From contig CAKNOI010000003.1 in assembly GCA_930990125.1 (NCBI GenBank), positions 972-64,971 on the forward strand: 64,000 bases of DNA, in the 5' to 3' direction. Numbering within the stretch: the first letter of the stretch is position 1; every line of letters starts with the position of its first letter. Shown here in pieces: positions 35,945 through 38,474 of the stretch. This stretch comes from an uncultured Clostridiaceae bacterium. Its GTDB lineage: Bacteria > Bacillota > Clostridia > TANB77 > CAG-508. The translations under genes were made by a program, and so were the position numbers. The notes under the pieces are model-generated. The model made no database searches. It was not told the DNA's origin and saw nothing but the letters and a program-made list of their open reading frames with translations.

Positions 35945-36109
35945 ATATTTTACCTCTCTTATACTATTTATTGTACACTATAATTCTAATTTTGAAAAGT
36001 GACTTATACGTGACTTTAATAATTTCTTAAGAGAAAAGTAAAAAATATTTTGTTTGCGAAAAAGAAAAGGATGTGGTATGATAACAAAAATAAAAAGGAG
36101 ACAAAGAAA

Positions 36110-36970
36110 ATGGAAATTGTAATAGGAAAAACCTCCGGATTTTGTTTTGGAGTAAAAAACGCAGTAAGCAAAACCATACAAGAATTAGAAACCACACCAA
36201 ACCTATATTGTTTAGGAGAATTAATTCATAACAAAGAAGTAACAGATAAGTTAGAGCAAAAAGGGCTAACAATAGTAAACACAATAGAAGAAGTACCAGA
36301 AGGCGCAAGTTGTGTGATTCGTGCACATGGTATTACCAAACAGGAATATGAGGTGGCAAAAGAAAAGAAAATTTCTGTCATAGACTTAACCTGCCCTAAA
36401 GTGCTTTTAATACATCAAAAAATAGAACAATATGCGAAAAAAGGCTATACTATTTTGTTATACGGTAAAAAAGAACATCCAGAAACCAAAGGAAATGCAA
36501 GCTTTGGAGGAGAAAACTGCTATGTATTAGAAAAAAAAGAAGATGTAGACCAAGCCGTAAAACAAATACAAGAAAAAGGAAGTAAAAAAATTGCCATCTT
36601 ATCACAAACAACCTTTGGTGTAGAAGAATTTCATACCTTCACAAACGAAATTCAAACCCAAATGCCAGATTCAGAAATTCTAGTAGAAAACACAATTTGT
36701 AATAGTACCAAACTAAGACAAAAAGAAGCAGAAGAAATAGCAAAAACAGTAGACACAATGCTTGTAATAGGAGGAAAACATAGTTCCAACACAAAGGAAT
36801 TATACGAAGTAGCTAAAAAACAAAACACCAATACCATCCATATAGAAACAGCAGAAGAACTAAAAGATAAAGTATTTCCAAAAGAAAAAATAGGAATTAT
36901 TGCAGGAGCCTCAACGCCACAATCTGCTATTAACAAAGTGGTAGAATGGTTACAAAACGGAACAGAATAA
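36110..36970 (+). CDS. ispH: 4-hydroxy-3-methylbut-2-enyl diphosphate reductase IspH/LytB
   Basis: GFCFGV, AHG and conserved Cys positions; 286 aa from the RBS-supported ATG. Confidence 0.9.
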   Translation: MEIVIGKTSGFCFGVKNAVSKTIQELETTPNLYCLGELIHNKEVTDKLEQKGLTIVNTIEEVPEGASCVIRAHGITKQEYEVAKEKKISVIDLTCPKVLLIHQKIEQYAKKGYTILLYGKKEHPETKGNASFGGENCYVLEKKEDVDQAVKQIQEKGSKKIAILSQTTFGVEEFHTFTNEIQTQMPDSEILVENTICNSTKLRQKEAEEIAKTVDTMLVIGGKHSSNTKELYEVAKKQNTNTIHIETAEELKDKVFPKEKIGIIAGASTPQSAINKVVEWLQNGTE

Positions 36971-37018
36971 AATTATGGTAAACAAAACGAATAAACAATA
37001 GACTTCTTTGGCAAAATA

Positions 37019-37027
37019 TGATATAAT
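37019..37027 (+). promoter_or_regulatory. Extended -10 promoter TGATATAAT for the small ORF-fic operon
   Basis: TGnTATAAT ~30 nt upstream of ATG 37060. Confidence 0.45.
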
Positions 37028-37059
37028 AGATATGTAGTGTTGTTAAAAGGAGAAAAACA

Positions 37060-37230
37060 ATGTTAGATGAAAAAAAATTTGAATTTGATATAGCAAGTAT
37101 AAAAAGAGAGCTAGAAATAGAAGATATGCATATTACAGAAGAGGATGTTAATTTATTAAAACGTTACATGGATGATGAAATTAACATGCCAGAATTAATT
37201 GAAATTATCAAAAATCAGCCAATAGGATAA
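37060..37230 (+). CDS. Unlisted 56-aa acidic ORF upstream of fic; candidate FicA/VbhA-like antitoxin
   Basis: AAAGGAG RBS 7 nt upstream; position immediately 5' of a class-I-like Fic toxin. Confidence 0.5.
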   Translation: MLDEKKFEFDIASIKRELEIEDMHITEEDVNLLKRYMDDEINMPELIEIIKNQPIG

Positions 37231-37288
37231 ATCGCTTTCTAAAAGCTGATTTTTTTCACATACCCAAAAGAAGAAAGGGGGAAAAAGA

Positions 37289-37876
37289 ATGGATGAATTA
37301 TACGAGGCAAGAAATTCCATTTATTGCTACCCAGGTACAGAAGTATTAAAAAACAAATTAAATATTCATAAAAGAGAAGATTTACTATTTTACGAAACCA
37401 AAATTACAGCAGCAAAATTATTAAGCCTTCGTAGAAAAGGGGTTACTGGTGATTTTTCTGTAAAACATTTAAAACAAATTCACTATACCCTTTTTGAAGA
37501 TATTTACCCTTTTGCAGGAGAATTCCGAACAGAAAACATAGCAAAAGGCAGTTTCCGTTTTGCAGAATGGGAATATATTGAAGAGCAATGTAACATTTTA
37601 TTAGAAAGACTGCAAAAAGAAAATACCTTGCAAGGTCTAAATAAAAGAGCTTTTGTAGGAAGGCTTAGTTTTTATATGGCAGAACTAAATGTATTGCATC
37701 CATTCCGTGAAGGTAATGGAAGAACCATTCGCGAATTTATTAGGCAATTGGCATTAAAAAATGGCTATACGCTAAACCTAACAAAAGTAGATGCCAAAAC
37801 TATTTTAGAAGCATGCATGATATCTGTTGTAGATTTAAACCCACTAGAAGATTTACTAGAATATTGTATGGAATAA
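37289..37876 (+). CDS. fic: Fic-domain protein (FicT/VbhT-like AMP-transferase toxin)
   Basis: HPFREGNGRTIREF active-site motif; N-terminal YCYPGTEVLKNKLNI block; 195 aa. Confidence 0.8.
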   Translation: MDELYEARNSIYCYPGTEVLKNKLNIHKREDLLFYETKITAAKLLSLRRKGVTGDFSVKHLKQIHYTLFEDIYPFAGEFRTENIAKGSFRFAEWEYIEEQCNILLERLQKENTLQGLNKRAFVGRLSFYMAELNVLHPFREGNGRTIREFIRQLALKNGYTLNLTKVDAKTILEACMISVVDLNPLEDLLEYCME

Positions 37877-37991
37877 AAGGAAACTATACCCCCTTAAAGT
37901 AGACACAAAATAAAAAAATGTGTATACTTTAAGGGGGATTTTGATGACAAAAAGTGATACCATACCAAAAACAAAGAAAGAAGGAAAAACA

Positions 37992-38474
37992 ATGCCAGAA
38001 ACATTACAAATAAAAACAAAAATAGGAAACATAAGAATTGTAGCACAGGAAGGTAATATTATAGAAGTATCTTTTCTTCCAGAAGATACCATACTTTCCA
38101 AAACAGAAACGCAAAATCCAGTTTTACAAGAAGCAAAAAAACAGTTAATAGAATATATAGAAGGAAAAAGACAAGAATTTGATTTACCCCTGCATCCTGT
38201 AGGAACAGCCTTTAGACAAAAAGTGTGGAAGGAGTTACAAAAAATTCCGTATGGCGAAGTGCGTACCTACCAGCAAATAGCAATAGCCATAGGAAATCCA
38301 AAAGCCTGCAGAGCAGTAGGAATGGCAAACCACTGTAATAAAATTGGAATTATTATCCCATGCCATCGTGTAATAGGAAAAGATGGAACTTTAACCGGAT
38401 ATGCAGGAGGATTAGATAAAAAAGAGGTACTATTACAATTAGAAAAACAATATAAAGAAACCAGGAAAGAATAG
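37992..38474 (+). CDS. ogt: Methylated-DNA--protein-cysteine methyltransferase (Ogt/MGMT)
   Basis: PCHRV active site; YGEV(R)TYQQIA helix; RBS GAAGGA before ATG 37992. Confidence 0.9.
   Translation: MPETLQIKTKIGNIRIVAQEGNIIEVSFLPEDTILSKTETQNPVLQEAKKQLIEYIEGKRQEFDLPLHPVGTAFRQKVWKELQKIPYGEVRTYQQIAIAIGNPKACRAVGMANHCNKIGIIIPCHRVIGKDGTLTGYAGGLDKKEVLLQLEKQYKETRKE

Follow-up and report, generated by a model that had tools for sequence, protein, structure and literature searches.

The DNA analysed here (hereafter the window) is a stretch of 64,000 nucleotides from an uncultured Clostridiaceae bacterium (GenBank assembly GCA_930990125.1, contig CAKNOI010000003.1, positions 972 to 64,971). Two adjacent genes lie on its forward strand: a small open reading frame (ORF) encoding an acidic protein of 56 amino acids (aa) and, after a spacer of 58 nt, a gene for a 195-aa Fic protein. 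A promoter-like site precedes the pair, a weak hairpin followed by seven T residues (T7) separates the two genes, and a strong hairpin follows fic (Table 1). A reading of the letters alone, here called the original prediction, had proposed a FicA-FicT toxin-antitoxin pair with an attenuator-like hairpin between the genes. With a probability of roughly 0.85, we consider positions 36999-37943 to be a self-contained two-gene class I Fic toxin-antitoxin unit of the FicA-FicT/VbhA-VbhT kind, located on the chromosome of a low-GC gut member of the Clostridia.

The downstream gene encodes a class I Fic protein

The 195-aa ORF was recognised as Fic by Pfam (6.5e-17; 62.6 bits against a cutoff of 24), and its sequence matches in the PDB were VbhT (1.9e-34), EcFicT (2e-31) and Fic-1 (8wt0; 4.3e-27). 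The NCBIfam Fic score of 148.5 bits falls below the cutoffs of 181 for PRK10347 and of 800 for full-length VbhT with its BID domain. Judged by these scores, the window protein is related to E. coli Fic and VbhT but is an equivalog of neither.

The HxFx(D/E)GNGRxxR signature is present as HPFREGNGRTIR at Fic residues 137-148, with H137 as the catalytic residue and R140, R145 and R148 as R0, R1 and R2, respectively. H137, P138, R140, G142, N143, G144, R145 and R148 are all invariant in alignment A5, which is composed of the Fic proteins of 28 relatives. Both sequence marks on which the original prediction relied were thus recovered: the catalytic motif at residues 137-150 and the N-terminal block, YCYPGTEVLKNKLNI, at residues 12-26. 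The N-terminal DPY, described as a "lock" in class I Fic proteins from enterobacteria (PMC5033356), reads SIY in the window Fic; the tyrosine is conserved.

The AlphaFold2 model of the protein (pLDDT 91.3) had its best Foldseek match in the Fic domain of VbhT, with a TM score of 0.93 and an rmsd of 1.5 Å, and the helix layouts of the two agree. Next came Fic proteins whose crystal structures include a separate antitoxin (EcFicT/EcFicA, Bep/BiaA and Fic-1/AntF), and the class III proteins EfFic and NmFic scored below them. Part of what was to speak against the original prediction, an inhibitory glutamate within Fic itself, was looked for with the pattern [ST]xxxE[GN], which does not occur in the 195 aa. 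A class II or class III reading was rejected because the Fic polypeptide has no such internal motif. The earlier assignment to class I FicT/VbhT proteins agrees with this result and with the separate antitoxins of the nearest neighbours in sequence and fold. On sequence and modelled structure, then, the 195-aa ORF is a class I Fic enzyme, and its catalytic residue set is predicted to be complete for AMP transfer, because H137, R140, R145 and R148 are all present.

The small gene is under selection and paired with fic

Between the window and a sister lineage (L081), the small ORF differs at 16 synonymous and 2 non-synonymous codons, and fic at 70 synonymous and 24 non-synonymous ones. As judged by these codon changes, the small ORF is a real gene under purifying selection. 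Its product is as acidic as originally described (pI 4.3; 16 Asp or Glu residues versus 7 Lys or Arg), and the strong ribosome-binding site noted at the time is an AGGAG placed 7 nt before the ATG. The exact protein sequence is present on 307 contigs.

To describe the relatives, one genome per species was scanned, which gave 80 loci with relatives of Fic, nearly all of them in uncultured gut Clostridia. A homologue of the small protein, recognised by a hidden Markov model (HMM), was linked to Fic in 74 of these, and most of the 6 loci lacking a copy are truncated by contig ends. Usually, the small gene ends about 12 nt upstream of fic. In a subgroup whose Fic proteins carry HPYREGNGR, not HPFREGNGR, the small gene lies downstream of fic in 7 loci, that is, in the toxin-antitoxin order. 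The pairing is kept despite the changed gene order and is therefore strong evidence for a functional pair.

In the toxin-first loci (L006, L010, L029, L030, L032, L068 and L072), the small ORF is situated approximately 60-170 nt 3' of fic. At three loci of the HPYREGNGR subgroup (L043, L046 and L047) it is found about 1 kb upstream on the opposite strand, and the two genes are divergent. The most distant match, with 46% identity, is a 421-aa ORF from a member of the Paenibacillaceae (L080, 2329-3594) with a C-terminal Fic domain; the small-protein HMM found no VbhA-like ORF at that locus, which may have a different architecture. Additionally, four database entries (P0002, on a 643-bp contig, P0145, P0167 and P0168) show sequence of the small ORF fused to the N-terminus of an exonuclease, to an RHS-like protein or to the C-terminal half of Fic. 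These are probably assembly chimeras, deletions or gene-call run-throughs, and P0168, in which the antitoxin precedes or follows a truncated Fic in one chain, might be what is left of a decayed module.

The small protein is related to VbhA through intermediate sequences

The relationship of the small protein to known antitoxins was assessed with alignments of its own family (A3), of small proteins with the canonical motif (A6) and of a set that includes VbhA (A4). The family profile, run against 1.84 billion cluster representatives, yielded 144 matches at E <= 1e-3, nearly all of which lack both a name and a Pfam assignment. The most distant of these matches are proteins of 54-89 aa, in which the canonical T/S-x-x-x-E-G/N occupies the same column of the alignment. 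One protein, P0220, matches the family profile (E 5e-6) and also passes the Pfam VbhA cutoff (31.4 bits against 25.9), and weak Pfam VbhA matches were obtained for 12 of 31 family members.

In hhalign comparisons, A3 and A6 aligned with a probability of 99.15% (E 3.9e-19), ungapped over 54 columns. A6 in turn aligned with VbhA at E 1.2e-4, and its T/S, E and G fell on VbhA S20, E24 and G25. Furthermore, a homologue with 59% identity is named 'Antitoxin VbhA domain-containing protein' in UniRef. The alignment to VbhA that the original prediction had called for is thus weak when made directly and in register with S20, E24 and G25 when made through A6. The homology is convincing because this intermediate canonical-motif group bridges A3 and VbhA. 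By this profile bridge, the small ORF is a diverged VbhA/FicA antitoxin gene, and together with the purifying selection and the linkage at 74 of 80 loci this bears out the proposed FicA-FicT pair with a small upstream antitoxin.

The AlphaFold2 model of the small protein (pLDDT 90.3) has three helices, at residues 4-20, 27-37 and 43-51. Its sole PDB matches in Foldseek were the BiaA chains 5EU0_B and 5NH2_B (E 1.6, TM 0.56, 14-16% identity). This match between a model and two antitoxin structures is statistically weak but specific, and we regard it as suggestive.

An acidic variant occupies the position of the inhibition motif

No clean inhibition motif had been seen in the small ORF. This stands for the literal [S/T]xxxE[G/N], which a pattern search did not find in the 56-aa protein and whose absence counts against an antitoxin of this family; it does not stand for the motif position, which is filled by the variant ELEIED. 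Through A6, residues E17, E21 and D22 of the window protein align with S20, E24 and G25 of VbhA, and they are equivalent because both the A3-A6 and the A6-VbhA alignments keep the register. E21 is invariant in alignments A1, A3 and A4, VbhA included, and the mutation in PDB 3ZCB is at VbhA E24. Among 118 homologues, the glutamate is followed 51 times by N, 50 times by D and 17 times by G, and position -4 holds D 116 times and E twice, so the family consensus reads D-x-x-x-E-[N/D/G].

In the model, E21 is found at the C-terminal end of helix 1, which is also where the SRRLEG motif of EcFicA has been placed (PMC5033356). On alignments and model together, the "missing" motif is ELEIED, with E21 as the predicted inhibitory glutamate. 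ELEIED is a conservative variant of [S/T]xxxE[G/N], with E17 (D in most relatives) in place of S/T and D22 in place of G/N. Aspartate, like serine and threonine, is a good hydrogen-bonding and helix-capping residue, and like asparagine and glycine it tolerates the C-cap conformation. The motif serine of EcFicA, like that of AntF, is hydrogen-bonded to R2 and adds to binding (PMC5033356, PMC13327609); the motif contacts described in PMC5033356 are a hydrogen bond of S24 and a salt bridge of E28 to R2. An acidic residue at the S/T position could provide a second salt bridge.

The two strings originally listed as closest to the motif did not hold up. SIKREL was rejected: over 90% of relatives have N in place of S13, and its E17 stands at the S/T position, not at that of the glutamate. 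TEEDVN was rejected as it lies at the start of helix 2, where T26 is the N-cap and D29 is invariant; in the model it looks like an N-terminal capping box of that helix. It is worth stressing that searches with [S/T]xxxE[G/N] miss antitoxins that have Asp or Glu at the S/T position and Asp at the G/N position.

A hairpin separates the antitoxin and toxin genes

The short hairpin plus T7 between the genes was found as originally described: it is real but weak. It lies around the string ATCGCTTTCTAAAAGCTGATTTTTTT (37231-37256) and begins within the stop codon of the antitoxin gene. The stem has 10 bp, three of which are G-C pairs, with one bulged U and a 3-nt loop. It folds at -5.3 kcal/mol (z -3.07), an energy equalled by 1 of 200 shuffled sequences.

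The sister lineage, in which Fic is 88% identical and the nucleotide sequence of fic 81%, has a flawless stem of 11 bp at this position, which folds at -9.0 kcal/mol (z -3.5) and is again followed by T7. The two stems differ by one compensatory change from C-G to U-A, the T7 run is retained, and the bulge in the window is explained by a 1-nt deletion. Furthermore, all 6 loci with a spacer of at least 30 nt, as well as L094 (Clostridium sp. CAG:798-type), have another, dissimilar hairpin immediately behind the stop codon of the antitoxin gene. These hairpins, found in L002/L003, L051, L054, L060, L075 and L094, have energies from -7.5 to -15.3 kcal/mol (z -2.2 to -5.3), and a U-rich tract comes after most of them. 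Their recurrence in spaced relatives suggests a function, the simplest being partial termination.

The distance from the end of the U-run to the fic ATG is 31 nt, which leaves no room for a promoter, and therefore all fic transcripts must cross the hairpin. A separate fic promoter 3' of the hairpin was rejected for the same shortness. Promoter-like hexamers inside the antitoxin ORF were discounted as well; they are no more frequent than expected by chance and are located upstream of the hairpin.

Longer spacers are seen in L002 (2674-2847) and L003 (2769-3000), where 174-232 nt separate antitoxin and toxin and contain a strong terminator-like hairpin plus T7; the L003 spacer holds a second hairpin. 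A TG-extended -10-like sequence (TGATATAAA / TGGTATAAA) follows the hairpin in both, which suggests separate promoters for the antitoxin and toxin genes in these two loci.

The window hairpin may be a leaky intrinsic terminator, or attenuator, that keeps antitoxin transcripts above toxin transcripts, and we hold this part of the interpretation tentatively, at somewhat less than even odds. There is a precedent in type III systems, where a palindrome between toxI and toxN is a terminator that sets relative levels (PMC3401426). When the literature was searched for an intrinsic terminator within a type II toxin-antitoxin operon, nothing directly relevant came up. One could also speculate that a ribosome terminating at the stop codon would mask the stem and so allow translation coupling. 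The natural variants, with 12-nt coupling on one side and hairpin spacers on the other, suit tests of toxin-antitoxin stoichiometry at the level of transcription.

Genomic context and transcription signals

The features of the locus are collected in Table 1. The unit is flanked by ispH (LytB, 36050-36970) and ogt (37920-38474), and its GC content of 30.5% is close to that of the window (30.9%). Its neighbours (ispH, ogt and an ABC transporter) are housekeeping genes and do not form a defence island. In the sister lineage the pair also adjoins ispH, without ogt, and in more distant relatives it is located in unrelated gene neighbourhoods.

Table 1. Features of the two-gene Fic unit and its surroundings (window coordinates)
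Feature	Position	Strand	Basis
Promoter-like site: -35 TAGACT, 17-nt spacer, TG-extended -10 TATAAT	36999..37027	+	Consensus scan
Ribosome-binding site AGGAG, 7 nt 5' of the small ORF ATG	37048..37052	+	Sequence reading
ficA/vbhA-like antitoxin gene (putative), 56 aa, ATG start, acidic	37060..37230	+	ORF list, codon changes, pairing, profiles, model
Variant inhibition motif ELEIED (E17-x-x-x-E21-D22), predicted	37108..37125	+	Alignments, model
Weak terminator-like hairpin, stem 37229-37252, plus T7 37250-37256	37229..37256	+	Folding, sister lineage
Ribosome-binding site GGGGG (AAAGGGGGAA core), 7 nt 5' of the fic ATG	37277..37281	+	Sequence reading
Class I Fic (FicT/VbhT-like) AMP-transferase gene (predicted), 195 aa, ATG start	37289..37876	+	Pfam, PDB matches, model
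FIC active-site motif HPFREGNGRTIREF (Fic residues 137-150)	37697..37738	+	Residue invariance in alignment A5
Strong terminator hairpin 3' of fic: stem 37889-37937, then AUUUUG	37889..37943	+	Folding

The extended -10 promoter of the original prediction fared less clearly than the genes. The site exists and matches the consensus at 10 of 12 positions, plus TG. Its extended -10 together with the next 14 nt (AGATATGTAGTGTT) is kept in the sister lineage L081, where coding DNA is 81-89% identical. Its quality, however, is at chance level: in this AT-rich region (31% GC) we found 6 sites as good, with 6.1 expected. We therefore treat the promoter-like site as a candidate promoter of the two-gene unit. 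In contrast to the weak stem between the genes, the hairpin 3' of fic folds at -26.4 kcal/mol (z -6.23), an energy that none of 200 shuffled sequences reached; a generic terminator scan of 36800-38100 made no call despite this stability.

Directly 3' of fic, ogt (an O6-methylguanine methyltransferase gene) is present in the lineage of the window (L088-L093), and a gene for an ABC transporter or a 4HBT thioesterase takes this place in the sister lineage (L081 3602-3720, L083 990-1065). The stable hairpin after fic overlaps a promoter-like TAGACA-17-TATACT (37900-37928), which would serve ogt.

Proposed mechanism

In the unit as we picture it, one promoter would drive the antitoxin gene and then the toxin gene, and the hairpin at 37889-37937 would end the transcript. 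The intergenic hairpin plus U7 may cause partial termination, leaving antitoxin mRNA in excess. By homology, the 56-aa antitoxin would wrap Fic and set E21 against R148, blocking productive ATP binding. To judge from VbhT, FicT and Fic-1, free Fic would most likely AMPylate GyrB and/or ParE and so stop the control of DNA topology; the precedents for AMPylation of GyrB/ParE are VbhT and Fic-1 (PMC5033356, PMC13327609). The antitoxin-Fic complex may also strip AMP from the target, as the Fic-1-AntF complex does (PMC13327609).

Alternative explanations

Several direct comparisons speak against an antitoxin role of the small ORF. The protein scored 16.1 bits with Pfam VbhA (PF18495), below the gathering threshold of 25.9; a phmmer search against PDB sequences gave chance matches only and did not find VbhA, nor did an HMM of the close family find it in the PDB; hhalign of the close family with the single VbhA sequence returned a probability of 1%, yet with E21 opposite E24; and the fold match to BiaA is as weak as stated above. 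No model in NCBIfam, PADLOC or PHROGs matches the protein. These results would suit an unrelated conserved small protein, or an untranslated ORF, with Fic regulated in some other way. Such an explanation is highly improbable in the face of the codon changes, the pairing with Fic, the 99% profile match to canonical-motif small proteins, the invariant glutamate and the strong ribosome-binding site. A different question is what the pair does. From EcFicT it is clear that not every class I Fic protein is demonstrably toxic (PMC5033356), which also weighs against a toxin-antitoxin unit, and the pair might be a housekeeping regulator that reversibly AMPylates and deAMPylates a target such as gyrase, with the small protein as an obligate regulatory subunit and not an antidote. 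This finds some backing in the Fic-1-AntF complex, which acts as a deAMPylase via the equivalent glutamate (PMC13327609), in the chromosomal locus, with GC like its surroundings and synteny 3' of ispH in two lineages, and in EcFicTA, a vertically inherited pair for which toxicity has not been demonstrated (PMC5033356). The Fic motif of the window is fully canonical, though, whereas EcFicT lacks R1 (PMC5033356), and the varied genomic contexts of distant relatives are like those of mobile toxin-antitoxin modules. We find a purely regulatory role unlikely, and note that it and the toxin-antitoxin reading are not mutually exclusive. An anti-phage defence module, in which infection frees Fic from its antitoxin and the cell arrests, seems a poor prospect: Fic matches PADLOC PDC-S04 (model PDLC04838) over its full length (5.9e-69) and has homologues in phage protein families (phrog_12747, function not assigned; 3e-44), but PDC-S04 is a candidate family and the neighbours are those of a housekeeping region.

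For the intergenic hairpin, the case is much closer. It may have no role in toxin expression and be a 3'-end or stability element of a processed antitoxin mRNA, a relic of an order in which the antitoxin came last, or a chance palindrome; we give this not quite an even chance. The stem has just three G-C pairs plus a bulge, the generic terminator scan did not call it, and its 73-nt context folds no better than shuffles (z -0.30). The window hairpin is represented by just two sequence variants, and the covariation amounts to one pair. In 53 of 59 loci with a parsed upstream antitoxin, the spacer is at most 20 nt (typically 12) and has no hairpin. All of this weighs against an attenuator, and in the subgroup with the toxin-antitoxin order the small gene would naturally precede a terminator. 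For a role in toxin expression stand the compensatory change and the kept T7 in lineages whose fic genes have diverged to 81% identity, the recurrence of non-homologous hairpins at the same place in every spaced variant, and the lack of space for a separate fic promoter after the U-run.

Comparison with known systems

The best match of the window toxin, in both sequence and fold, is VbhT of the VbhT-VbhA pair of Bartonella schoenbuchensis (3SHG, 3ZC7, 3ZCB). The systems share a small upstream antitoxin with an inhibitory glutamate, predicted in our case, and the canonical HxFx(D/E)GNGRxxR. They differ in several respects. The window Fic is a Fic domain alone, without the C-terminal BID/secretion domain of VbhT, and has SIY for the N-terminal DPY; its antitoxin carries ExxxED where VbhA has SxxxEG; the genes lie 58 nt apart, with a hairpin in the spacer; and the host replicon is a Firmicute chromosome, whereas VbhT-VbhA is found on an alphaproteobacterial plasmid.

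E. coli FicT-FicA (Fic-YhfG; 5JFF, 5JFZ) resembles the window pair in size, architecture and the small upstream gene, as well as in the location of the inhibitory motif at the end of antitoxin helix 1 (PMC5033356). The toxins match at 2e-31 by sequence and with TM scores of 0.82-0.87 by fold. EcFicT, however, has a degenerate motif (R1 changed to Leu) and no demonstrated AMPylation (PMC5033356), while the window Fic keeps R145 and R148. Fic-1-AntF of Pseudomonas bijieensis 2P24 (8WT0) is likewise a class I Fic protein with a small antitoxin (4.3e-27, TM 0.83). The glutamate of the AntF SxxxE motif, E28, inhibits AMPylation of GyrB and is required for deAMPylation by the complex (PMC13327609). 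The position of AntF S24, where S24A weakened AntF binding, is acidic in the window antitoxin. With the BiaA antitoxin homologues bound to Bartonella Bep Fic domains (5EU0_B, 5NH2_B), the likeness is one of fold only and is suggestive. PADLOC PDC-S04, which the window Fic matches along its whole length, is a candidate defence family defined by genomic association.

In position and logic, the window hairpin resembles the terminator between antitoxin and toxin in the type III systems ToxIN, CptIN and TenpIN (PMC3401426). There, the antitoxins are RNA repeats and the terminator is defining and tested; here, the antitoxin is a protein and the putative terminator is a weak hairpin limited to some lineages. 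It is conceivable, though in our opinion doubtful, that both particulars of the locus are functional together: that a leaky antitoxin-toxin terminator arose repeatedly in this FicTA clade of the Clostridia, setting the ratio as in ToxIN, and that the all-acidic motif [D/E]xxxE[D/N/G] is a functional variant that alters R2 clamping, perhaps in favour of the deAMPylase state.

Clostridium FicT is already included in published trees (PMC5675462). For annotation, the locus extends the FicTA family by a large and mostly unannotated branch from gut Clostridia; it leaves the picture of how Fic toxins act unchanged. FicTA modules are well characterised, and the acidic [D/E]xxxE[D/N/G] motif and the lineage-specific intercistronic hairpins are two minor twists on them.

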